A stretch of 64,000 nucleotides of DNA from Candidatus Sysuiplasmataceae archaeon. Its GTDB lineage: Archaea > Thermoplasmatota > Thermoplasmata > Sysuiplasmatales > Sysuiplasmataceae. Within the stretch, counting starts at the first letter, position 1. Every line of letters starts with the position of its first letter. Made by a program: the position numbers and the translations under genes. The notes beneath the pieces are model-generated. The model did not search any database. It was not told where the DNA came from and saw only the letters and a program-made list of their open reading frames with translations. Positions 15,032 through 57,964 of the stretch are shown piece after piece. The DNA is taken from NCBI GenBank assembly GCA_046706185.1, contig JBJKPR010000002.1, forward strand, positions 31,433-95,432, written 5' to 3'.

Positions 15032-16609
15032 TCAGAGAGAAAACTCCCGCCGGACGATGCAGCGGCCACCTGTTGTGTCGCTCACAGTTGCGGTGGCAAC
15101 GCACCTGCCCTTGAGTCCTGTCTTCAGCAATGCTGTTCCAGAGTGCATTTCAGCAAAGTCCGCCGCTGCCTTTTTTCTGGTTAGGCCGGGGAATTCCAGC
15201 TCTATGCGGGCAAGCATGAGAATGCCGCTGCCTGAAGAGTAAGCCCGCAGTGTCACTGTGGAGCAGCAGTTTGAAGAGGAGGCGTCCAGTGAGGCGACGG
15301 GCGGAAGAAGGAGCCTGAGGCACTTACCGGAGTGCCCGAAATCGTCAAATGGGGAGGACACGATTTCGGCAGGTATGTGATATGTGCATCCGTTGAACTT
15401 CAGGGTGTAGGCGGCTTTGCACGTGCCCTTACTCTGTCCAACGCCCGTGGGTACATCCGCTTTGTAAATACCTTCAAGTAAACTGCGACCGTCATTGCAG
15501 CTCTCCATCCCTGGCGATTCCGCGAGACCGAGCGCGGCGGAAGGGGTCGTGCGTGGTGCATTGCGCTCAGGCGAACCAATGCGACTGCCGGCTATGCATG
15601 CGGTGAGCAGCCTCGGTTCCACAAAATCCCTCGGGCACCTTTCCTTCTTCAAACGTTTCAAAGTTGTGTTTATTGCGACCTCATTGCTGTCCGCGGCAAC
15701 CCATTTCCTTCCGAGAGACGATGCAACCACCGCGGTTGTTCCGCTGCCGCAGAAGAAATCAGCAACAGTATCACCGTCTGAGGAGGAGGCTTTTATTATT
15801 GTCTCAAGCAGCCTGACAGGTTTCTGGGTTGGATATCCAACTCTCTCCTTCGCCTGGCTGTTGATGATCGGTATATCCCAGACATCTTCCCTGACCTTTC
15901 CAAGAGAATGCAGCTTCGTCCGTCTGCCAAACGACACTATCCCCCTTTCGCCCTGGCTGATTGTCCCTCTGCTGTATTCCATCCTCACGGCATCAACGTT
16001 GAACTTGTGTTTTCCTGTACTCTTTGCGTACAGGAGTATTGTGTCGTGCTTTTTCTTGAACCTGTCCCTTACTGTGCCGCCAGGGTCCCTGTAATGCCAA
16101 ATGACTTCATTCAGGAAGTTGCCGTAGCCGAATATGCTGTCAGCCAGTACCTTGACGTAGTGTGATGCATGCCAGTCAATATGAATGTAAATGCTGCCGC
16201 TGTCTTTCAGAAGCCGCCTCATCTCCATGAGCCTCGGCCTCAGCCAGGCAATGTAACCGTCCAGTCCGTCATACCATACATCGCTGAAAACAGGTTTTCC
16301 ATCCTCCCTGTAAAGATGATTGAATTCCCTGTTTGTGAAGAAGGGCGGATCTGCGTAGATTAGCTGAATGCAGCTGCCGGGAAGGGCCCGCATTGCGGCC
16401 AGGTTTTCGCCCCATATGAGCATGTTCGCGTCTCCAACCCCGCCACCAAACCTCTGTCCGTTTTCAAGCAGTGGTACGGAAGCAAAGGGCGAAACGTCCA
16501 GAGTATCCAGCGCGTTTCTTTCAGGAGCAGGGGCGGTTTTACGTGGCTTCACACTATAGCTTCCGCCCGACTGTTTCATCTGCAGCACCTTCTTTTCAAT
16601 GCACGGCAC
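15032..16609 (-). CDS. beta-class N6-adenine/N4-cytosine DNA methyltransferase with an uncharacterised ~180-aa C-terminal domain
   Basis: Motif IV DPPF (IYADPPFF) lies N-terminal to motif I FxGxG (FFCGSGTT). This is the permuted order of beta-class amino-MTases. No adjacent restriction endonuclease was found. Confidence 0.8.
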   Translation of the reverse strand: MPCIEKKVLQMKQSGGSYSVKPRKTAPAPERNALDTLDVSPFASVPLLENGQRFGGGVGDANMLIWGENLAAMRALPGSCIQLIYADPPFFTNREFNHLYREDGKPVFSDVWYDGLDGYIAWLRPRLMEMRRLLKDSGSIYIHIDWHASHYVKVLADSIFGYGNFLNEVIWHYRDPGGTVRDRFKKKHDTILLYAKSTGKHKFNVDAVRMEYSRGTISQGERGIVSFGRRTKLHSLGKVREDVWDIPIINSQAKERVGYPTQKPVRLLETIIKASSSDGDTVADFFCGSGTTAVVASSLGRKWVAADSNEVAINTTLKRLKKERCPRDFVEPRLLTACIAGSRIGSPERNAPRTTPSAALGLAESPGMESCNDGRSLLEGIYKADVPTGVGQSKGTCKAAYTLKFNGCTYHIPAEIVSSPFDDFGHSGKCLRLLLPPVASLDASSSNCCSTVTLRAYSSGSGILMLARIELEFPGLTRKKAAADFAEMHSGTALLKTGLKGRCVATATVSDTTGGRCIVRREFSL

Positions 16610-17439: not shown

Positions 17440-18387
17440 ATGGACGCCCAGAAGTTCGTTGAAGGACAGAAAGGTGACATAGCCTCGAAGGTGAGGGGAA
17501 GGGCGATAGTTGCTCTTTCCGGAGGTGTTGACAGCACTGTAGCAGCCGTCATAGTCAATGAGGCGATAGGTGAAAGACTCCTGGCAGTCTATGTCGATAC
17601 GGGCTTCATGCGGAAGGGGGAAACCGAGAGCCTCTCCTCCATGTTTGAGAAACTGGGGCTGAACTTCAGGATCGTCCATGCGTCAGACCTTTTTTTTGCC
17701 GCGCTGGAAGGCATTGAGGACGCTGAAAGAAAGAGGGAGATCATAGGGAGGAAATTCATCGAGGTATTTGAAAAGGAAGCCCAGGACTTCGGGGCTGAAT
17801 ATCTCGTTCAGGGGACAATTGCTCCCGACTGGATTGAAAGTGGCGGATCGCTCAGGGACAGGATAAAGTCGCACCATAACGTTGCAGGTCTTCCACCTGA
17901 AATGAAGCTTGAGCTCGTTGAGCCATTGAGGGATCTTTACAAGGATGAAGTCAGAGCCGTGGCGAGATACCTCGGAGTCGCAGTGGCTGAGAGACAGCCA
18001 TTTCCCGGACCAGGGCTGGCTGTCAGGGTCCTCGGCAAGCTGACAAGAGAAGACGTGGAGATAGAGCGTGAAGCTTGCGCGATCGTCGAGGAAGAGATAG
18101 AGAGGTACCATGCGGAAGGTAAAATCGGAGCGCTTCCCTGGCAGTACTTTGCTGTCCTGGCACCGGTCAGGAGCGTGGGAGTCCAGGGGGACGTGAGGGC
18201 GTTCGGACGGACTATCGTGGTAAGGGCGGTAATGTCAAAGGATGCGATGACTGCAAGGTTCTCCGACCTCCCGCATGAGCTGCTGGAAAACATATCCACC
18301 AGGATCACCAACAGACTAGGCTCTTCAGTAACAAGGGTAGTCTACGACGTGACAAACAAGCCTCCTGCAACGATCGAATGGGAATAA
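17440..18387 (+). CDS. guaA: GMP synthase subunit B (ATP pyrophosphatase)
   Basis: PP-loop SGGVDSTV and C-terminal GMP-synthase dimerisation domain. Confidence 0.9.
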   Translation: MDAQKFVEGQKGDIASKVRGRAIVALSGGVDSTVAAVIVNEAIGERLLAVYVDTGFMRKGETESLSSMFEKLGLNFRIVHASDLFFAALEGIEDAERKREIIGRKFIEVFEKEAQDFGAEYLVQGTIAPDWIESGGSLRDRIKSHHNVAGLPPEMKLELVEPLRDLYKDEVRAVARYLGVAVAERQPFPGPGLAVRVLGKLTREDVEIEREACAIVEEEIERYHAEGKIGALPWQYFAVLAPVRSVGVQGDVRAFGRTIVVRAVMSKDAMTARFSDLPHELLENISTRITNRLGSSVTRVVYDVTNKPPATIEWE

Positions 18388-19086
18388 TCAGACATACCTT
18401 GTAATTTCTGAAAGGACCTTGTCGCATACAGCATTTGACGAACCCTGGTCATAGTCGTGCTCCGGCATGAATACGTTAGCAAAGCCGAGGCGGTTCAATA
18501 TATCCATCTCTCGGGGGATGCCTGTAAGGACGAGTGTTTCGGGCGCAGCCACTTCAAGGTTGCTGAGGGAATATCTGAAGGGACGTGCGTGCGGCCTGAC
18601 CATTCCATTTTCGGATGAAAATTGAGCATCGTCGATGTAGCCGCCCATACCTGACCTTTCAGTCACAACCCTGATGTGTTGAGGCGGTATTCCAACGGGT
18701 GCGTTGCACACCATTCCAACTTTAATTCCGGCTTCCTTGAAATTCTTCATCAGTTCGGAACATGAATGGACTGGCGAGAACTGAGCCATTCTGCTGACGG
18801 CCACAATCTCAACCATCGCGGAAATGAGCGTAGGTGCCTCGATTTCAAGCTCCTCGAGCACTTCAGCCACAACTGCGTCAAGGGTGGTTTCGACCCTTGT
18901 CCTGGCTATACGCTCAGCCCTTTTGTCCATGTGAGCATTGAAGAGATAGGATAACCTGGCGGTGCCCACATCGTGGCCCTCTGCCTCGAGCAACCTCGTG
19001 AGCGAGGAAATGTCAGCGGGCGGAATGGAGGAGTCTGTATGCGGCCCCCTGAACATGATTTCGTAACCGACGATCAGCCCTTTCAC
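18388..19086 (-). CDS. hypothetical protein (possible HAD-like fold; catalytic DxD not evident)
   Basis: 232-aa ORF with good coding composition. Convergent with the GMP synthase subunit B gene. Confidence 0.35.
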   Translation of the reverse strand: MKGLIVGYEIMFRGPHTDSSIPPADISSLTRLLEAEGHDVGTARLSYLFNAHMDKRAERIARTRVETTLDAVVAEVLEELEIEAPTLISAMVEIVAVSRMAQFSPVHSCSELMKNFKEAGIKVGMVCNAPVGIPPQHIRVVTERSGMGGYIDDAQFSSENGMVRPHARPFRYSLSNLEVAAPETLVLTGIPREMDILNRLGFANVFMPEHDYDQGSSNAVCDKVLSEITRYV

Positions 19087-19511
19087 GCGCCCAAATGTAT
19101 CTGGTTACTATTTCTCCTTTGTTCAGGTCGATGCTGATTGAGCAGGTGTCCTGCTTCGCACCCGGTTCGATTGGATGGTCCTTGGCATGTCAGTCTGAGC
19201 TCGGGTGCTTAACGCAGCTGCCCGGCACCCTTCGGCAATGCCAGCCTGCACCGCAACAGTGGCTGACCATGCGATACCGCTCGTCGCTCGCTCACCGCCA
19301 ATGTCAAAGGACCGGCGGGCATTGCCCGCAGGTCCAGTTTGAGTTCCAGGTCGGATAACGAAGGGTCAAAAATGTGAAAGAATCTTCCAGTGAATCACTG
19401 CGGCACACCCAGTGGCGAAGCAAGGGAATTTCGCCGATACTGGCGGAATAAAATCACAAGCTCGCAATTGAACGGGAATTTATATAAGAGAAAGTAAGGA
19501 AATGCACGCTG

Positions 19512-22500
19512 ATGAGTACCGACCGCAGAAGGACGCCTGGTTCCAGTGAAATTGATATCGCTGCGGGCATGGATCGGATAAGGGCAGCGGAGAATACATC
19601 CGCAATTGAGTCCGTGCTGAACGGGTTGAGGGAGACGTTCTCGTGCAGGTCGGCGACCATACACGTCGCTGCCGGTGCGGGTCTCATTAGCCTGCTGTCT
19701 GTTCCCGATGCATCTTCCTCCGGGGAGACCATCCCCTTTGAATCGGAACATCCGGTTGCTGCCTGCGCCAGAGTAAGGGATATTGTGTTCGTGCAGGGCT
19801 CACCTGAAAGCGGACCGTGGAGCGATATGTTCGCGCTGCCGCTTGTCAGTTCCGAAGCAACGATCGGTGTCCTGTCTCTCGAACGGCCATTGAGGGGCAG
19901 AGAGCAACTGGCCAGCCTTTCAAGAATCATTGCAATGGCCCTTACTCCGCTTCTGCGCGACGAAGGCGCACGAGCTGCCAGGAGGTTCAACACGCCCGAC
20001 GTGATCATGAAAACGGTCAGAAACAGTTCGCCGTACGAGTCCACCACGGAGAGGTTGAGAACGCTTACAACGACGCTCATGAACTCGTTTGCGCTCACTT
20101 CTGTAAGGCTGTATTCCGAAAGTGACGGCAGCCCTGAACTTCTCCTGTCTGCAGGCGATGACATTGCGGTTGAGGCGTATGTTGACATTGAGGGGCCTCT
20201 GAAAAAAGGGATCCATGCGGCAAGTTTGAGGCATGATCCTGACAGAAGATGCACCATGTCCAGGAACATTGTTCCGATTGATTCTCCTGACGAAGGAAGA
20301 ATTGTAGTTGTCTATGAGATGGACGCCGCGAGGCGAGATACGGATGGTGTCAGGGAGAATGTGTCTTGTGCCTATCTTGCCCTTCTTGCACTCGCAGGAA
20401 CGGAGAACACAGTATCGCTCAACTGGGTAAGAGCAATAGAAACGATGGAGAAGGTTGCGGACGATGTGTCAAGGAGTGGTGATGATTACCAGGGACTCGT
20501 TCTCGAAAGGTTTCTGGACAGGCTCAGTGAGATGGGTTTCATAGCCGGCTATGATATCCTGCCCGGAAGTGAAATCGCGGGAACCTCCACCCGTGGAGAC
20601 AGTGACGGCAATGGCCATCAGATCAACAGTGAACTTGCCATGCTGATGTCCGAGAGCAGTGAAACAAAGCAGCCATTGTTCGACAAGCATGCGAGCACAG
20701 TAGTCTTTCCGGTCAAGGATGATGCGAATGATACATGGGAAATTGCGCTCAGACTGACCGGAAGGCAGCTCCTGAGATCTGAAAGAAGGTTGTGGGAACG
20801 CCTTGGTTCTGCCTTCGGGCTTCTGGTGAGGGGGTTCATGCTTGAAGCGAAGAGCAGGAGACAGGCAGAAGAGACGAGAAAACTGAGGTCTTCTCTGTCT
20901 GCATTCCAGGGAGCGTCTGCTTCCATGGAGACTGCCGATACAGCTGGAAAAGTGGTAACGAGGCTCGCCGAAAGCCTGTCGACAATCACACTGGGGGAGG
21001 CGTTTGGCCTTGTGAAAGACGGGGATGCGTTCACACCTGTCTTGCCGGCAGACGACACTATCAGAATTGAAAGCGCGGTTGTAGAATCGATGCTCTCTTC
21101 ATCCATTGAGGTTGCAGGACATGTATACGACGTCCATCCTGATGCACTGCGCGGGAGGCTCCCGGAACTTGTAGGCAGTGAGGTATACCATGGTCTTTAT
21201 GCAGTCACCATAAGCTCGAGAGAGGGTGAGGCAAGGGGCCTTGTCCTCTGTCCTGGACAGAAAAGCAGGTTTCTGCCAGTCACGCGGGAGGGTGAGCTTT
21301 CGGGCCTCGCTTCGCTCGCTGACGTCAGGATGAGCTGCATTTCACTTGCCGAAGAGGCTTCACTCGAAAGAAAGAAGCTCAGGAAGTTCGAAGAGCTGAT
21401 ATCGAAGATATCTCTGTCGGAGGCCGACAGCCACATAATGGCCTCAATTGTGGAGGCTGCATCAGTAATCACGAATTCAGAGATGTCTGCGCTTGCGATA
21501 CTGGATGTCGAAAAAGGGAGACTTGTCTCTGCAAATTCAAACGGCTTCGACTTGACGGATGAGGTAAGGAAGAGATGGTCGAGCGGCGGAGTGACTGGAA
21601 GGATCCTGAGAACTCTTGAAGCTGAAATAATCAACGACTACGCCTTCGATCCTGACAGGGATAGCTATTCGATTGACAGTCTCAAAGTCAGGCAGCTTGC
21701 AGGAGTGCCGATAAGAATAGATGTCAAGCACAAGGGCTTCCTTGTTGTCATGAATACTGCAGACGGTATGTACAGCGTGGCGCACCTCCGGACGCTGGAG
21801 TTGCTCTCAAACATAGCGTCTTCGGCCATAAGAGCAGCAAATGCAAGGGATGAGAGGAGAAGGCTGGTGTCGGACTTTGACAAGCTGCAGTCAGCAGAGC
21901 TGAAGCTTTACTCATCCAGGAGTTTCAGCGAATTGATAGAACTCCTTGCGAATGAGGCGAGAGACATATTCCACGCCTCCGCCGTGCTCATCGCAACGGA
22001 TGTAAACAATGTTAAGAGGATCCTGTTCTCCACAACACAGGATGTGGCGGAAGGTGATGTGGTTTACAACAGCGGACCCATTGGCCTGCAGTTTGACGAG
22101 CAGCCACACACTGCAAGGATAGTCGAGAGGGCAACGCTCGAGGAAGAATGGGCAAAGGTGCTCGAGACAAACGAGCTTCTGCTCGTGAGGTCCGGACTCC
22201 CGCACAATTCGATTGTCGTGGCAACGGTAAACGCGGAAGGAAAGGCAAAGTATGCCACAGAGGACATAGACAATTTCAGCAAACTCTCCAAGATAGCATC
22301 AACAGCACTGGAGAAGACGGTTCTGCTCAGTGGTATAAACCAGAAACTCAAACACATCGAGATCATGCACACGATAGTTGATGCGCTAGTTTACGGAAAG
22401 AAGGAGTATGAGATTTACGATAGTGTTCTTCCCACACTCGTTGAGATGTGCAGGGCAGACTTGGGTCTTCTCTGGAAGTATGACAGGGAAGGGGAGAAAC

Positions 22501-22880
22501 TGAAAGTCTCGGCTGAATGGTACAGAAGCAGGGAAACGGAGCACCTGGTCGGCTACGAGGTCGGCGCGAACAAAGGAATTGTAGGAAGCGTTGTGATGAA
22601 CAAGATGCCTGTGCTCATTGCGAACGCAGCAATAGACAACAAGGCGGTTCACATAAGCGGAACCAACGTCGAGAAATTTGAAAGTGTCCTTGGAATGCCG
22701 TTAATAGTCAGCGGGAAACTGCTTGGTGTCCTGACGGTCTACAGGGACCAGCCGCCTCCGTTCACATCATCTGAACTTGACATGCTTTCAGGCGTTTCGA
22801 ATGACATTTCTCTTGTCATGGCGAGGCACAGCCTCGAGGCAGATGGAAAGAAGCACGCCGGCTTGCCCGGCACAGACTGA
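19512..22880 (+). CDS. large multi-GAF-domain protein (1122 aa) with no recognisable output domain
   Basis: Several GAF-like modules. The C-terminal module is a canonical GAF (LGLLWKYDREGEKL...GIVGSVVMNKMPVLI...LGMPLIVSGKLLGVLTVY). No His-kinase, HTH, GGDEF or EAL motifs were seen. Confidence 0.7.
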   Translation: MSTDRRRTPGSSEIDIAAGMDRIRAAENTSAIESVLNGLRETFSCRSATIHVAAGAGLISLLSVPDASSSGETIPFESEHPVAACARVRDIVFVQGSPESGPWSDMFALPLVSSEATIGVLSLERPLRGREQLASLSRIIAMALTPLLRDEGARAARRFNTPDVIMKTVRNSSPYESTTERLRTLTTTLMNSFALTSVRLYSESDGSPELLLSAGDDIAVEAYVDIEGPLKKGIHAASLRHDPDRRCTMSRNIVPIDSPDEGRIVVVYEMDAARRDTDGVRENVSCAYLALLALAGTENTVSLNWVRAIETMEKVADDVSRSGDDYQGLVLERFLDRLSEMGFIAGYDILPGSEIAGTSTRGDSDGNGHQINSELAMLMSESSETKQPLFDKHASTVVFPVKDDANDTWEIALRLTGRQLLRSERRLWERLGSAFGLLVRGFMLEAKSRRQAEETRKLRSSLSAFQGASASMETADTAGKVVTRLAESLSTITLGEAFGLVKDGDAFTPVLPADDTIRIESAVVESMLSSSIEVAGHVYDVHPDALRGRLPELVGSEVYHGLYAVTISSREGEARGLVLCPGQKSRFLPVTREGELSGLASLADVRMSCISLAEEASLERKKLRKFEELISKISLSEADSHIMASIVEAASVITNSEMSALAILDVEKGRLVSANSNGFDLTDEVRKRWSSGGVTGRILRTLEAEIINDYAFDPDRDSYSIDSLKVRQLAGVPIRIDVKHKGFLVVMNTADGMYSVAHLRTLELLSNIASSAIRAANARDERRRLVSDFDKLQSAELKLYSSRSFSELIELLANEARDIFHASAVLIATDVNNVKRILFSTTQDVAEGDVVYNSGPIGLQFDEQPHTARIVERATLEEEWAKVLETNELLLVRSGLPHNSIVVATVNAEGKAKYATEDIDNFSKLSKIASTALEKTVLLSGINQKLKHIEIMHTIVDALVYGKKEYEIYDSVLPTLVEMCRADLGLLWKYDREGEKLKVSAEWYRSRETEHLVGYEVGANKGIVGSVVMNKMPVLIANAAIDNKAVHISGTNVEKFESVLGMPLIVSGKLLGVLTVYRDQPPPFTSSELDMLSGVSNDISLVMARHSLEADGKKHAGLPGTD

Positions 22881-23084
22881 CTCCTCCGCCTGCCTGAAAA
22901 TGCACCGATCCCCCCTTATGCTGGGGAGCCGGGCCTTTCGTGTGTATGTTGCTGTTGGAGCACCGCTGGCAGCGGAGCAAGGCGACACATTCACTGCTTT
23001 GCCCGAATGCGCGGGACATACTGGAGAGCACTGGCATTGCAAAGATAATAAAAGATGCCGTGAATAACCTTAATCGAACTACAG

Positions 23085-24257
23085 ATGTCTAGCGGTGTAT
23101 TCAGGGATATATCAAAGCTTTCGTTCGACTACGTCCCGGAGAAGCTCCTCCACAGGGAGGAGCAGTGGAGAAAGCTTGAAGTGATGTTCGAGCCGGTTGC
23201 CCAGGGCGGGTACAGCCAGAACGTCCTTCTTGTGGGCAGCATTGGCACAGGAAAGACAGTTACTTCAAAGAGGTTCTGCACGGAGCTCTCACTGAACGCA
23301 AGAAAGTCGGGCAGAAGTATCGAATGGACCATAGTGAATTGCAGGCAGAGAAACAGCGAGGCGTCGACGCTCCTGAAGATGATTAACTACTTCGACCCGA
23401 ATTTCCCCGACAGGGGATTTTCAGCGCAGGAGCTAAGGAAGGTTCTCAGGAAACATATAGAAAAAAGGGGAGGTCACTGCATATTCGTCCTGGACGAGGT
23501 TGACGCGCTCTTCAGGAGCGGAGCAAGTGATCTGATATACTTCCTCAGCAGACTTCCAGAGGAATCTGATTCACTGAAGAACAGAGTGTCGCTGATTCTG
23601 ATATCGCAGAGGCACGTGTTCGAAATGCTCGACATGTCTGCCCTTTCCACATTCAAACGAACGAACGTGGTCGAGTTTGGCAAGTACACCAAGGAGCAGC
23701 TTTTCGACATAATATCAGCTAGGGCGGACCTGGCGCTTGTCAGCGGCAGTTATGATGATGAGATACTCGATATGATCGCAGACATTGCCAGCGAGTGGGG
23801 CGATGCAAGGTTTGCAATAGAGATGCTTGAAAAGTCAGGCATGATTGCAAACGAGAGAAGCAGCGACAGGATAAGCACGGAAGAAGTGAGGGCTGCGAAA
23901 GCGGCAACCTACGCGTTCGTGACTGAAGAACGGGTGACGGGGCTGAACAGGGACCAGTTGCTTATACTGCTCGCGACAGCCAGGATGTTGAGGAACAAGG
24001 CGTACACCGAGACGTCTGAAGTGGAGAAGAGCTACAGGATTGCGTGCGAAGAGCACAACACGAAGCCGAGGGCACACACGCAGTTCTATTCCCATGTAAA
24101 GGAGCTCGCCGGGCTGGGCCTGCTCGACATAAGGTCCAAGAAGGGAAGCGTTGCCGGAATGACGAACATGATCACGATGCTTGACGTCCCGGCTGATGTC
24201 ATGGTGCAGCAGATAGAACGCCTTCTGGGAGCCGGAAAGAAGCAGAAAATGCGCTGA
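23085..24257 (+). CDS. orc1: Orc1/Cdc6 replication initiation protein
   Basis: AAA+ Walker A GSIGTGKT, Walker B FVLDEVD, C-terminal winged helix. Confidence 0.9.
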   Translation: MSSGVFRDISKLSFDYVPEKLLHREEQWRKLEVMFEPVAQGGYSQNVLLVGSIGTGKTVTSKRFCTELSLNARKSGRSIEWTIVNCRQRNSEASTLLKMINYFDPNFPDRGFSAQELRKVLRKHIEKRGGHCIFVLDEVDALFRSGASDLIYFLSRLPEESDSLKNRVSLILISQRHVFEMLDMSALSTFKRTNVVEFGKYTKEQLFDIISARADLALVSGSYDDEILDMIADIASEWGDARFAIEMLEKSGMIANERSSDRISTEEVRAAKAATYAFVTEERVTGLNRDQLLILLATARMLRNKAYTETSEVEKSYRIACEEHNTKPRAHTQFYSHVKELAGLGLLDIRSKKGSVAGMTNMITMLDVPADVMVQQIERLLGAGKKQKMR

Positions 24258-24271
24258 AGGAGGATCGCAAA

Positions 24272-25378
24272 ATGCAGAATGCGCTGAAGCAAACACCTGT
24301 TTTTGAAGAGCATGTAAGACTCGGCGGGCACATGGTTGACTTCGCAGGATGGGAGATGCCGCTGCACTACGGGTCCATAATAGAGGAGCATATGGCTGTG
24401 AGGGAAAAGGTCGGGCTGTTCGACGTTTCGCATATGGGTGAGCTCCTTTTTTCTGGCAGGAACGCAGCGGCTGAGCTCGACAGGCTTTCGACAAACGGAA
24501 TTGCCGGCACTGATACAGGAGTGTGCACATACACACACCATCTGAACACCGAGGGAAGGATAATAGACGATACAATAGCCACGAGAATATCTGACGAGGA
24601 GTTCCTTACGGTCCCCAATGCTTCCAAGACGGAGGAGGTGCTCCGTTGGGTCGGAGGCAATGCAGGCTGCGAAGTCAGGGATGTGAGCGAAGAAGTATGT
24701 TGTTTTGCGCTGCAGGGACCGTCGGCAGTACATGTTATGCACAAGATCGCACCTGATGCCACTGAACTGAAGAGCTTCAGGGGAATGTTTGCCGGAAAAG
24801 GGAATGGAAGCTTCATCGAGAGGCTCAAGCAGGGAAACATATACATTTCAAGGACAGGCTACACTGGCGAGGATGGTTTTGAGTTCTTCCTGCACAGGAA
24901 CATCGGACCGCAGACGTGGAGAAGGCTGATGGAAGCCGGGGGAGAATACGGCATCAGGCCGGTAGGGCTCGGGGCAAGGGATTCTCTCAGGCTCGAGAAA
25001 TGCTATCTGCTGTCGGGGACTGACTTCGACGGCAAGCAGTCGACGCTTGAGACAGGTTACGGCTGGATTATCAACTGGGATCACGAGTTCATAGGAAAGG
25101 ACGCAATGCTCAGGCAGAAGAACGACGGGGGCTACGCCAGGCTGGCTAGCTTCATGACGGATGGCAAGGTGATACCAAGGCACGGGGACAAGGTGGAAGG
25201 AGAGGCTGGAGAGGGGTACATAACAAGCGGGGGCTATTCACCCGTGCTGGGAAAGGCAATAGCGATGGGCTACATGAGGCCATGGCCAAAGACAGGAGAC
25301 AGAATTGGAATCGGGGTGCGAGGCAGAAAAGTGGAGGGGACAGTTGTCAAGCCCCCGTTTGTCAGGGCAAGGAAATAG
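24272..25378 (+). CDS. gcvT: glycine cleavage system T protein (aminomethyltransferase)
   Basis: GWEMPLHYGS, LFDVSHMG, GYTGEDGFE motifs. Confidence 0.9.
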   Translation: MQNALKQTPVFEEHVRLGGHMVDFAGWEMPLHYGSIIEEHMAVREKVGLFDVSHMGELLFSGRNAAAELDRLSTNGIAGTDTGVCTYTHHLNTEGRIIDDTIATRISDEEFLTVPNASKTEEVLRWVGGNAGCEVRDVSEEVCCFALQGPSAVHVMHKIAPDATELKSFRGMFAGKGNGSFIERLKQGNIYISRTGYTGEDGFEFFLHRNIGPQTWRRLMEAGGEYGIRPVGLGARDSLRLEKCYLLSGTDFDGKQSTLETGYGWIINWDHEFIGKDAMLRQKNDGGYARLASFMTDGKVIPRHGDKVEGEAGEGYITSGGYSPVLGKAIAMGYMRPWPKTGDRIGIGVRGRKVEGTVVKPPFVRARK

Positions 25379-25381
25379 TGC

Positions 25382-26683
25382 TCAGGGGTATATCCTGGAG
25401 GGCGTCCTTGGAAAAGGAGTGGCGTCACGTATGTGCTCCAGCCTGCACAGCCATCTGAGGACCCTTTCGATTCCAAGTCCAAAGCCCGAATGGGGGACGG
25501 AACCGTATTTTCTCAGGTCTAGGTACCACCTGTATGGCTCGGTGGGAATATTCTGCGCCTCAAGTCTCTGGACAAGCTTGCTGAAGTCCGTTTCCCTTTC
25601 GCTTCCGCCTATTATCTCTCCGAAACCCTCAGGTGCAAGGAGGTCTGCACACTTGTATGTCCTCACATCCTCCTCGTTGTCCTTCATGTAGAATGCCTTA
25701 AGCATCTTCGGGTAGCTCGTGACGAAGAGTGGTTTCTCCAGCCCTTCTGTCAGCAAGCGCTCCTCCTCTGTTCCCAGGTCGTCCCCCCATGCAAGTTCCT
25801 TACCGCTGCCCTGCAGTGCCTCAATTGCCTTTGAGTAGGTCATTCGCTCGAAGGGCGGCTCAATGGCCCTGAGCGTGTCGGGTTTTCTTCCAAGCAGCTC
25901 TATTTCATCCTTCCTTCTTTCTGCGACGGCGGAAGCTATCGCGCTGACGAGCTCCTCCTGTATCTTCATGTTGCCGTCGTTGTCGACCCATGCCTCCTCG
26001 GCCTCCAGATGCCAGTATTCAGTAAGGTGTCTTGGCGTCCTGGATTTTTCTGCCCTGAATGAAGGGGTCACCGCGAATACCTTTTCGAGGGTTGCGGAAA
26101 TTGCTTCCAGATACATCTGGGCACTCTGGCTCAGGTAGGCTTCCTGGCCGAAGTACTTCAGCGAGAAAAGGGTGGTTCCACCCTCGCACGCGTTTGTTGT
26201 GAGTATCGGAGGAGTAACTTCAAAGAATTCATTCTGCCTGAACCATTCCCTCGCCCCCTGCAGGACCGTTTCCTTCACCTTCATCACTGCCGTCTGTTCC
26301 CTCGACCTTATCCAGAGGTGCCTGTTGTCCAGCAGAAATGGTTCGCTCTGATTTGCGGTAATGGGGAATGGTTCGGCGAAGGAGACGACGTGAAAACTTG
26401 TGGCCCTCAGTTCATACCCTCCGGGGGCCCTCTCGTCCTTCTTCAGCCTGCCCCTGCACTCGACGGAGGACTCTATAAGCGCCCTTCCGGCTTCGTCGAA
26501 CTCACTGCCCTGGACTTCCGACTTCTTGACAGTGCACTGCATTATGCCCGTCTGATCCCTGATCACTGCGAAGACTATGGAGCCGCTGCTCCTCGTCCTG
26601 TAGATCCATCCCCTAATCGAATACTCCGAGCCCTCCTGCCCGGAGCTGATTACTTCGGATATGTGCATTGGATCGCGTGCCAA
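25382..26683 (-). CDS. asnS: class IIb aminoacyl-tRNA synthetase, most likely asparaginyl-tRNA synthetase
   Basis: Motif 2 FRAEKSRTPRHLTEYWHLEAE, motif 3 GGSERE, and an N-terminal OB anticodon-binding domain. AsnRS fits the motif details better than AspRS. Confidence 0.65.
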   Translation of the reverse strand: MARDPMHISEVISSGQEGSEYSIRGWIYRTRSSGSIVFAVIRDQTGIMQCTVKKSEVQGSEFDEAGRALIESSVECRGRLKKDERAPGGYELRATSFHVVSFAEPFPITANQSEPFLLDNRHLWIRSREQTAVMKVKETVLQGAREWFRQNEFFEVTPPILTTNACEGGTTLFSLKYFGQEAYLSQSAQMYLEAISATLEKVFAVTPSFRAEKSRTPRHLTEYWHLEAEEAWVDNDGNMKIQEELVSAIASAVAERRKDEIELLGRKPDTLRAIEPPFERMTYSKAIEALQGSGKELAWGDDLGTEEERLLTEGLEKPLFVTSYPKMLKAFYMKDNEEDVRTYKCADLLAPEGFGEIIGGSERETDFSKLVQRLEAQNIPTEPYRWYLDLRKYGSVPHSGFGLGIERVLRWLCRLEHIRDATPFPRTPSRIYP

Positions 26684-32042: not shown

Positions 32043-32204
32043 CGGGGCGGCAATTGGCCCGCCGTTGTATTAATCCAGCGGTCTATCGAGACGTTCTCAG
32101 GCTGTATTGCCCGGTCAAAGTCATGTATGAGGGGGCATCCTGTCCAAAAAAGGGCGCTAAACGACAAATAAGCACGAAATAAGTAAAATTTGTAAACTTA
32201 AAGT

Positions 32205-32236
32205 ATTGTTATATGACAAAAATATTAAATATAGCA
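32205..32236 (+). promoter_or_regulatory. AT-rich putative BRE/TATA region upstream of tfb
   Basis: ttgttatatgacaaaaatattaaatatag, the only strongly AT-rich block before tfb. It lies about 170 nt upstream of the GTG start. Confidence 0.25.
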
Positions 32237-32405
32237 AAAAATGATCAAAACCACAACCAAAGACAGCATATGGCGGTTGTCCGCTGCAGAGCTATATTCT
32301 GCGGGTGGACGGCTTTGATTGCAGGTTCAACGCCATGTCCCCGCAGTCGTTCGTGTATAGCGCAAGTCGAGCAGCCACCGTACACTGCCTCACGGACGTG
32401 AGAAA

Positions 32406-51450: not shown

Positions 51451-51984
51451 TGCATTCTATTTGTACATTAAATTACTATTAGAAACTATGTCCATGCGTT
51501 CTGTTTTCAGAGTCCCGGCAGCATTGGAGCAGAACCTGTTTTCGAACGGTGAAATGGCTCAAGCGAATGAAGCGCAGCCGGCATGCTGCCAGGACGGTAC
51601 GGGTCTAATTCCCTGGAAAACCGAATGCTGCTGCCACAATTCTGTTCAGGGCGGAAGCAGAAGGGAGGCGACGAGGTCGGCTCAATGTAATTCGGGCCGA
51701 CATGCAGCTGTATGATCAGGAGAGCGTGGCACGTATTTTTTTCGGCTGAGGGAAAATTGTCTGGCAATGGAAAAAGAAACATGTCGAACTGATACCATTA
51801 TATGATATATCGAATAATATTATGAAAACTCCAGATGAAGGAGAAATCGAACGTCATACAAATCCAAGACATTGTCATGCAATCGTCAGACATTTTTTAT
51901 ACTTGAAAAGCATTTCATCCTCTGGAATAGGAAATCATGCGATTTCCACAAAGGCCCTCATCGGGGGCCGGAGAGGATGGGAAA

Positions 51985-57875: not shown

Positions 57876-57964
57876 GCCGCAGTAACTCAGACTGGGAGAG
57901 TGTGAGACTGAAGTGTTTACTCACGGATATCTCAAAGTCGCCGGTTCAAATCCGGTCTGCGGCA
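57876..57964 (+). tRNA. tRNA-Phe (anticodon GAA) with a 15-nt intron between positions 37 and 38
   Basis: Manual fold: acceptor GCCGCAG/CUGCGGC, D arm ACUC-AGACUGGGA-GAGU, anticodon stem UGAGA/UCUCA with loop CUGAAG..A, T arm GCCGG-UUCAAAU-CCGGU, discriminator A. CCA is not encoded. Confidence 0.85.

Follow-up and report, generated by a model that had tools for sequence, protein, structure and literature searches.

Gene organization of the locus

The window analysed here is a stretch of 64,000 nucleotides (nt) from a Candidatus Sysuiplasmataceae archaeon (contig JBJKPR010000002.1, positions 31,433 to 95,432 of the forward strand). It carries a gene, here called the giant gene, whose product is predicted to be built of seven tandem GAF-type modules and to end without any output domain. 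The giant gene is an open reading frame (ORF) running from ATG to stop at 19512..22880 on the plus strand and encodes 1122 amino acids (aa). Upstream of it, and divergent from it, lies a fast-evolving gene for a HAD-IA-like hydrolase (18388..19086, -), preceded by guaA, the gene of the C-terminal GMP-synthase subunit (17440-18387, +). Downstream, a spacer of 204 nt (22881..23084) possessing no oligo-T tract leads to orc1/cdc6 (23085..24257, +), which was identified by TIGR02928 (271 bits) and shows the Cdc6 lid and winged-helix domains. It is followed by gcvT (aminomethyltransferase; 24272..25378, +) and by asnS (25382-26683, -). These coordinates and the TIGR02928 match agree with an earlier note, made on this DNA from the sequence alone, which had described an ORF of 1122 aa upstream of orc1/cdc6 with gcvT next. 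The same note placed the gene immediately upstream of orc1. Orc1 is the next gene and is read in the same direction, but the 204-nt spacer lies between the two.

The giant gene is a real gene under purifying selection, because it has intact orthologues, a low ratio of non-synonymous to synonymous substitution rates (dN/dS) and a conserved box upstream of its ATG. Intact orthologues of 988-1124 aa were found across 12 lineages, and five loci from Thermoplasmata metagenome-assembled genomes (MAGs) carry an orthologue at the same position. The dN/dS was 0.205 in the pair L001/L005, the sole unsaturated pair of loci. By part, the N-terminal half showed 0.27 and the C-terminal half 0.095, compared with 0.04 for orc1. 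A pseudogene or a chance ORF is ruled out by the dN/dS together with the conservation. The box, GGGAATTTATATAAG, resembles a B recognition element (BRE) and TATA element and is situated at 19474..19488 (+), about 25-35 nt 5' of the ATG. It is kept in the window, L001, L002, L004 and L005, while L003 and L013 show a TATA-like sequence. The annotated start is backed by the conservation of the box at that distance. Judging by the distance usually seen between TATA element and start codon in archaea, the mRNA is probably leaderless or has a very short leader.

Between the HAD gene and the giant gene the window has 425 nt of intergenic sequence, clearly more than L001, L002, L004 and L005 have. The surplus of ~280 nt (window 19130-19400) is GC-rich, with 67% GC at 19200-19299, and the region includes an imperfect 30-nt inverted repeat (19234-19263 / 19297-19326, 70% complementary). 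It gave no Rfam match and may be what is left of a small insertion, or else an RNA gene missed by annotation.

Domain content of the giant protein

Pfam search of the giant protein returned only families of the GAF superfamily (PF13185, PF01590 and PF13492). The C-terminal GAF domain (aa 967-1103) scored 60.4 bits with GAF_2 and a second one (aa ~642-773) scored 57.1 bits, against a GAF_2 cut-off of 28.6 bits. The region of aa 32-144 reached 18.2 bits, which is under the cut-off, and Pfam gave no match at aa ~170-640 and ~790-950. Through the two clear domains, which correspond to modules 5 and 7 of the structure described below, the protein belongs to the GAF superfamily. In NCBIfam, matches were confined to GAF regions, those of NifA, PtsP and NorR, and stayed far under the cut-offs. 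The best match was NifA (TIGR01817) with 48.5 bits against a cut-off of 528.85, and its alignment covered profile positions 10-177 only. Sequence searches of the Protein Data Bank, whether started from the protein or from the family profile, similarly returned GAF domains only, including those of PtsP (3ci6/3trc), Lcd1 (5w10) and an HD-GYP protein (4mcw).

The 14 available family members were also scanned individually. All 14 showed matches to GAF, GAF_2 and GAF_3, while HisKA, HATPase, REC, HTH, cyclase, GGDEF/EAL and HD domains were found in none of them (HisKA and HATPase at E<=0.1). Identity as a histidine kinase was rejected on the lack of HisKA and HATPase and also because the protein stops 8 residues past its last predicted helix. 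An enhancer-binding protein of the NifA/NorR type was likewise rejected, since the sigma-54 AAA+ domain and the C-terminal HTH are missing.

Known functions of GAF domains were compared by their signature residues. A regular-expression search for the NKFDE signature, N-K-x(5-24)-F-x(3)-D-E, found it in 0 of the 14 members, which argues against a role as cyclic nucleoside monophosphate (cNMP) sensor. No column of invariant cysteine exists among these members; the best is C980, present in 11 of the 14 and situated in the first helix of module 7. A bilin sensor of the phytochrome or cyanobacteriochrome type was rejected for this reason. Free methionine-R-sulfoxide reductase (fRMsr), a single GAF domain, is defined by conserved catalytic cysteine residues, and this role was rejected on the same ground. 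A match to Rid/L-PSP at aa 842-928 (E ~0.01) was set aside, as the region is modelled as a GAF-like module and is colinear with GAF. A role in defence was discarded after PADLOC gave no match.

A histidine, His948 (nt 22353-22355), is present in 13 of the 14 members within a KLKH[IL]E motif on the linker helix between modules 6 and 7, and a second histidine at aa 953 occurs in 11 of the 14. The region around His948 is unlike the H-box of HisKA, and the HisKA profiles give no match there.

Predicted structure and module organization

The structure of the giant protein was predicted by AlphaFold2 (AF2) using an alignment of nine family sequences, the window protein and P0014-P0021. The model showed a mean predicted local distance difference test score (pLDDT) of 78.6 and a predicted template modelling score (pTM) of 0.39, while an input of the single sequence gave a pLDDT of 34 and was unusable. 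The predicted secondary structure follows a seven-fold repeat of a helix, two strands, one or more helices and three to four strands, and after every repeat comes a helix of 29-52 residues as connection. These linker helices show a heptad-like hydrophobic bias. No transmembrane-like or long hydrophobic stretch was found in the protein. Low confidence is confined to aa 1-29, 359-370, 1043-1046 and 1108-1122, so the model leaves no unassigned globular segment that might harbour a cryptic output domain.

All modules are encoded on the plus strand. Module 7 (aa 965-1078; 22404..22745) is a canonical GAF domain and the most conserved of all (GAF_2 60 bits; PtsP 3ci6; hhalign 99.8%). Module 5 (aa 639-748; 21426..21755) is a clear GAF domain (GAF_2 57 bits; NifA GAF region; hhalign 98.6%). 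Module 1 (aa 31-124; 19602..19883) is a weak one, supported by the AF2 topology, 18 bits with GAF_2 and 83% in hhalign. Module 6 (aa 805-908; 21924..22235) is modelled as a degenerate but highly conserved GAF-like domain with an invariant EEEW at aa 877-880. The remaining three modules were assigned by predicted topology only. Module 2 (aa 178-271; 20043..20324) is GAF/PAS-like with an alpha-bb-alpha-bbb-alpha order and a pLDDT of ~79, module 3 (aa 327-414; 20490..20753) is a reduced GAF/PAS-like domain with a disordered loop at aa 359-370, and module 4 (aa 478-581; 20943..21254) is a GAF-like six-stranded alpha/beta domain with a pLDDT of ~82. A last predicted helix (aa 1086-1114; 22767..22853) follows module 7, and the protein then ends without a DHp domain or transmitter.

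To verify the GAF assignment, profiles of the individual modules were built from the 14-member alignment and compared with 142 unrelated multi-GAF proteins and with a generic GAF profile made from 180 of their domains. The profiles of modules 7 and 5 gave 523 and 152 significant domain matches, respectively, and with the hhalign values above both are unambiguous GAF domains. Module 1 aligned with the generic profile over its full length and colinearly at E 9e-6 and reached E<0.01 in 4 of 13 members, which is weak. Module 6 also aligned full-length and colinearly, at a marginal E of 2.5e-3, and its HMM scores were no higher than those of shuffled controls. Reversed sequences used as hhalign controls gave E values of at least 0.04. 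When segments were compared with each other by hhalign in a six-sequence alignment, modules 5 and 7 were linked and no others.

Fold searches were done with the whole chain only, and the aligned residues were not reported. The top 50 Foldseek matches are tandem GAF or PAS-GAF-PHY arrays, with the phytochromes among them showing 8-12% identity. Structural likenesses include the GAF domains of Nlh2, DosS and NifA, the GAF-like autoinducer-binding domains of LuxR-type proteins (RhlR/QscR) and the structural GAF domain of radial spoke protein 2. No standard output domain appeared in the fold searches of the model. As these searches are unresolved by residue, the status of modules 2-4 as GAF instead of PAS-like comes from AF2 topology.

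The earlier note had called the C-terminal domain a canonical GAF, which the GAF_2 match bears out, and had found no output domain, which now extends to the 14 family members and to the fold searches. The structure prediction and Foldseek search it had proposed delimited seven modules and disclosed no cryptic output domain. Its description of the protein as built entirely of GAF-like modules is clear for modules 5 and 7, weak for module 1, marginal for module 6 and a matter of modelled topology for modules 2-4.

Family distribution and conservation

Exhaustive HMMER scan of 1.84 billion representatives of 50%-identity clusters identified eight full-length relatives of the giant protein, of 1010-1122 aa, with E values from 1e-93 to 1e-291. 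Beyond these eight the scores drop abruptly to generic multi-GAF giants (E 1e-42), which match aa ~565-1116 only. An indexed protein search, started once from the protein by itself and once from the family alignment, had returned no family member other than the query, and the family surfaced through HMMER. A metagenome scan added two further loci only, from a lineage already represented. The named members come from Candidatus Sysuiplasma superficiale and from unclassified Thermoplasmata or Thermoplasmatota MAGs, and they carry the automatic names 'GAF domain-containing protein' or 'hypothetical protein'. Searches of the literature on GAF domains with Orc1 in archaea and on Sysuiplasma yielded nothing relevant. 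The family is thus small, undescribed and restricted to one Sysuiplasmatales-like lineage of Thermoplasmata.

Pairwise identity among the family members is 20-54%, and it is distributed unevenly along the protein, with a mean of ~0.2 at aa 1-640 and 0.45-0.57 at aa 760-1080. The N-terminal half evolves fast and with insertions and deletions. Purifying selection is concentrated on the three C-terminal modules, which form the conserved core. The near-invariant residues concentrate in modules 6-7, comprising the EEEW, many glycine, proline and tryptophan residues at aa 983-1084, and His948. Across the syntenic loci, leaving aside the outgroup locus L006, identity to the window proteins was 69-92% for Orc1, 69-84% for GuaA, 71-85% for AsnS and 55-76% for GcvT, while it was 34-54% for the HAD hydrolase and 29-55% for the giant protein.

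Conservation of gene order around orc1

The order guaA(+) HAD(-) giant(+) orc1(+) gcvT(+) asnS(-) is present in every locus of sufficient length; L014 and L018 stop within about 140 nt of the giant stop codon and are uninformative for the orc1 side. In the P0019 lineage (L011, L012, L015 and L016) guaA and asnS lie on swapped sides and HAD-giant-orc1-gcvT is intact. Exactly this four-gene segment is inverted there, as in L011 7211-13784. The inversion is the sole evidence of linkage above background synteny, and as a single event it cannot tell which gene pair matters.

The earlier note had asked whether the orc1 adjacency is conserved in related genomes, and it holds in every locus which extends far enough. 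Of the two observations that the note said would refute it, a standard output domain or a lack of synteny, neither was made. A replication link drawn from this adjacency is weak, because the housekeeping neighbours are equally syntenic over more than 20 kb. The window and its most distant relatives are collinear around the block through genes for RibD_C, GATase, AdoHcyase, PfkB, FKBP, GT4 and TFIIB. It is also weak because the outgroup L006, whose Orc1 is 51% identical, has the order rpl1-rpl10-[1.1 kb]-orc1-gcvT...asnS with neither giant nor HAD gene, so the linkage of orc1, gcvT and asnS is independent of the giant gene. The giant-orc1 spacer measures 28, 51, 60, 63, 81, 83, 139, 204, 502 or 678 nt and tolerates a GNAT-like remnant or a small ORF, and the evolutionary rate of the giant is 5-10 times that of Orc1; both argue in the same direction. 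Each of the two genes moreover has its own conserved promoter-like box, which further weakens the link. That of orc1, AAAGATAATAAAAG, lies at 23041..23054 (+), ~30-45 nt 5' of the orc1 ATG, and is near-invariant across the aligned loci; in L013 it falls within the 3' end of the giant gene. Gene order inherited within the Sysuiplasmatales-like Thermoplasmata accounts best for the adjacency.

Transcription termination in archaea generally needs oligo-T tracts. Runs of at least 4 T are absent from 9 of the 11 giant-orc1 spacers, and read-through from the giant gene into orc1 is plausible since most spacers lack such a terminator. The spacer of the P0019 lineage is 502 nt long with 41% GC, has T-rich tracts and, in L011, contains a 52-aa ORF on the minus strand. 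The 678-nt spacer belongs to the P0015 lineage. At L017 9428-9786 (-) it contains two adjacent ORF fragments which, by eye, resemble the halves of a frameshifted GNAT-type acetyltransferase.

A search for a replication origin beside orc1 in the window, covering ORB-like repeats, an AT-rich unwinding element and the mini-ORB-like TTCCAGTG, gave nothing above chance, and no such repeats or unwinding element stood out in the rest of the window either. The replication origin may lie away from this orc1. The 200-nt windows of lowest GC in the 64 kb are away from orc1, at 51741-51940 (35% GC) and 32081-32280 (37% GC). An inversion centred on orc1, as in the P0019 lineage, would fit a nearby replication origin.

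Among the neighbours, the HAD hydrolase stayed under the cut-off of every HAD subfamily model and showed weak likeness to pyrimidine nucleotidases and sugar-phosphate phosphatases. Three genes upstream of the giant gene, window 15032-16609 (-) encodes a 525-aa N6/N4 adenine DNA methyltransferase (CcrM/PRK11524-like). It has the same place in L007, L014 and L017 and is absent from L011 and L013, and so forms a variable element in the conserved block. The sole tRNA of the window is tRNA-Phe (GAA) at 57876-57964. It probably carries an archaeal intron, because all 71 positions of the Rfam model are matched within a span of 89 nt.

Functional interpretation

The explanation we favour, for which we see about an even chance, is that the giant protein is an array of seven tandem GAF-type modules without output, in which a C-terminal core binds a ligand or partner and signals by protein contact. 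The data show a soluble protein, predicted to consist of seven alpha/beta modules on long connecting helices, and its place is probably the cytoplasm. Solved tandem-GAF proteins (PDE2A, PDE5/6 and CyaB2), together with the long amphipathic helices, suggest that it may form an elongated parallel homodimer. Modules 5-7 (aa ~640-1110) would constitute the functional core, most likely with a small ligand and/or a protein partner as binding target, and would pass the signal on by protein-protein contact and not by catalysis. Modules 1-4 would serve as a fast-evolving, sequence-degenerate spacer or scaffold. Transcription of the giant gene may read through into orc1. Among the possibilities named in the earlier note, a scaffold or a protein acting through a partner appears to be the best reading.

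Several observations weigh against this explanation. The individual domains of the AF2 model are credible, but the arrangement between domains is unreliable at the observed pTM. Modules 2-4 showed no sequence similarity to GAF in the module-profile and hhalign tests, and they could be PAS-like or purely structural. Ligand binding is assumed from the conservation of modules 5-7 alone, because the NKFDE signature and an invariant cysteine are absent. Furthermore, no partner gene, such as one for a kinase core, REC or STAS, was found near the giant gene.

The same data can be read as a purely structural scaffold, in which GAF folds are building blocks and sense no ligand, like the GAF domain of the flagellar radial spoke protein 2. 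The loss of recognisable GAF sequence in four of the seven modules, the quick evolution of the N-terminal half with its insertions and deletions, and the absence of known ligand motifs are all in line with this. We regard it as rather unlikely, given the strong conservation of modules 5-7, where many glycine, proline, tryptophan and charged residues are invariant, and given that module 7 scores like the bona fide ligand-binding GAF domains of PtsP, NifA and DosS.

The gene order suggests another possibility, namely that the giant protein and the divergently encoded HAD-type phosphatase make one functional unit, in which the giant would regulate the phosphatase, its GAF domains sensing the substrate or product of the enzyme, or both proteins would serve a shared pathway. 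Both genes are adjacent and divergent in every locus, the inverted lineage included; they are present in the same clade and together missing from the outgroup locus; and they are the fastest-evolving genes of the block. Still, the giant protein has no DNA-binding domain for transcriptional regulation, the matches of the HAD protein to nucleotidases or phosphatases are weak and under cut-off, and one inversion cannot separate the HAD-giant linkage from the giant-orc1 linkage. We consider such a unit improbable.

The giant protein could also be a trans-acting metabolite sensor for Orc1, its GAF array binding this AAA+/winged-helix initiator. A small molecule would then control the initiation of replication, or the expression of orc1 by way of read-through. 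This would represent a split, in-trans version of the in-cis GAF-AAA+-HTH logic of NifA/NorR, a coupling which is purely hypothetical. The NifA GAF region is the best NCBIfam match. Adjacency and orientation are kept in all 12 lineages and survive one inversion, and the lack of oligo-T terminators makes co-transcription plausible. Against this, synteny is just as strong across the whole neighbourhood, orc1 possesses a near-invariant promoter box for itself, and lengths of 28-678 nt as well as inserted genes are tolerated in the spacer. Identity reaches 69-92% for Orc1 but 29-55% for the giant, the outgroup Orc1 manages without a giant, and origin-like repeats or an AT-rich element were not found nearby. 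With no positive evidence beyond gene order, we hold this idea to be very improbable. The giant protein would gain greatly in importance, should its conserved C-terminal GAF block contact Orc1, as we are not aware of any description of an archaeal replication initiator under ligand-gated control.

Most doubtful of all is the view that the giant is decaying, left over from a multi-GAF histidine kinase whose transmitter was lost, and has little or no function: the nearest relatives outside the family are indeed such kinases (~21-25% identity), the N-terminal half is under relaxed constraint and an earlier census found very few two-component proteins in Thermoplasmata genomes (PMC5847659), but full-length intact ORFs are kept across lineages diverged to 20-30% identity, the dN/dS of 0.1-0.27 is well under 1 and the promoter is conserved.

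If the array of GAF-type modules signalling by protein contact is the true explanation, a small lineage-restricted family would be added to the poorly studied archaeal proteins of sensor domains without output, a class in which no member has a known partner or ligand. Over half of this 'GAF-only' protein is invisible to sequence profiles and was recoverable by structure prediction only. The unusual traits of the giant are its seven modules, of which four are cryptic in sequence, and its conserved position upstream of orc1.

Comparison with known systems

The tandem-GAF proteins PDE2A/5/6 (GAF-A/B) and CyaB2 have a catalytic domain behind their two GAF domains and bear the NKFDE signature of cNMP binding. 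The giant protein differs in having seven modules, no catalytic domain and no NKFDE, and its identity to them is 10-14%. The enhancer-binding proteins NifA, NorR and FhlA combine GAF, AAA+ and HTH in one chain, whereas the giant polypeptide possesses neither the sigma-54 AAA+ domain nor HTH.

The nearest sequence relatives outside the family are multi-GAF sensor histidine kinases. They contain 5-15 domains of GAF_2 type, similar to the array of the giant, and match it at aa ~565-1116 with 21-27% identity. They end in HisKA-HATPase, sometimes with REC, while the members of the giant family end after the last GAF helix.

Multi-domain proteins of GAF only occur in metagenomes, for example P0089 and P0100. 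P0089 is a complete six-GAF-only protein. P0100 is likewise complete with six GAF domains, and behind its gene lie separate genes for HisKA-HATPase and REC. The output of P0100 is supplied in trans, because these domains are separately encoded downstream. Both ORFs are complete and, like the giant gene, code for ~1100 aa, and Pfam recognises six GAF domains in each and no other domain. Every module in them is a canonical GAF domain, whereas the giant has four cryptic modules and orc1 downstream. The earlier note had judged a sensor-only protein of this size unusual. The giant is less unusual than that, since P0089 and P0100 show that complete multi-domain proteins made of GAF only exist elsewhere. 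An unrelated metagenome contig (L020 1-7438) has multi-GAF ORFs of at least 1364 aa and of 1119 aa interleaved with a 72-aa REC fragment, followed by genes for a 225-aa HisKA-HATPase and a 121-aa REC protein. The arrangement represents a multi-GAF kinase that is either split by nature or frameshifted.

In archaea, output-less REC-(PAS/GAF)n proteins were described by Galperin et al. (2018; PMC5847659), who presumed that they act by protein-protein contacts and noted them as experimentally unstudied. In the same census, 11 Thermoplasmata genomes had few two-component proteins, with 3 histidine kinases and 4 response regulators counted (PMC5847659). The statement of the earlier note that such proteins have no described role in archaea has therefore to be narrowed, as output-less REC-linked (PAS/GAF)n proteins were already known, though it stands insofar as these are unstudied (PMC5847659). 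Like the giant, the REC-(PAS/GAF)n proteins and those with HisKA and no HATPase are cytoplasmic archaeal proteins consisting of sensor or interaction domains only; they differ in carrying REC or HisKA, which tie them to two-component signalling, while the giant has neither (PMC5847659). Of the systems compared, the giant protein would work most like these sensor-domain proteins without output.

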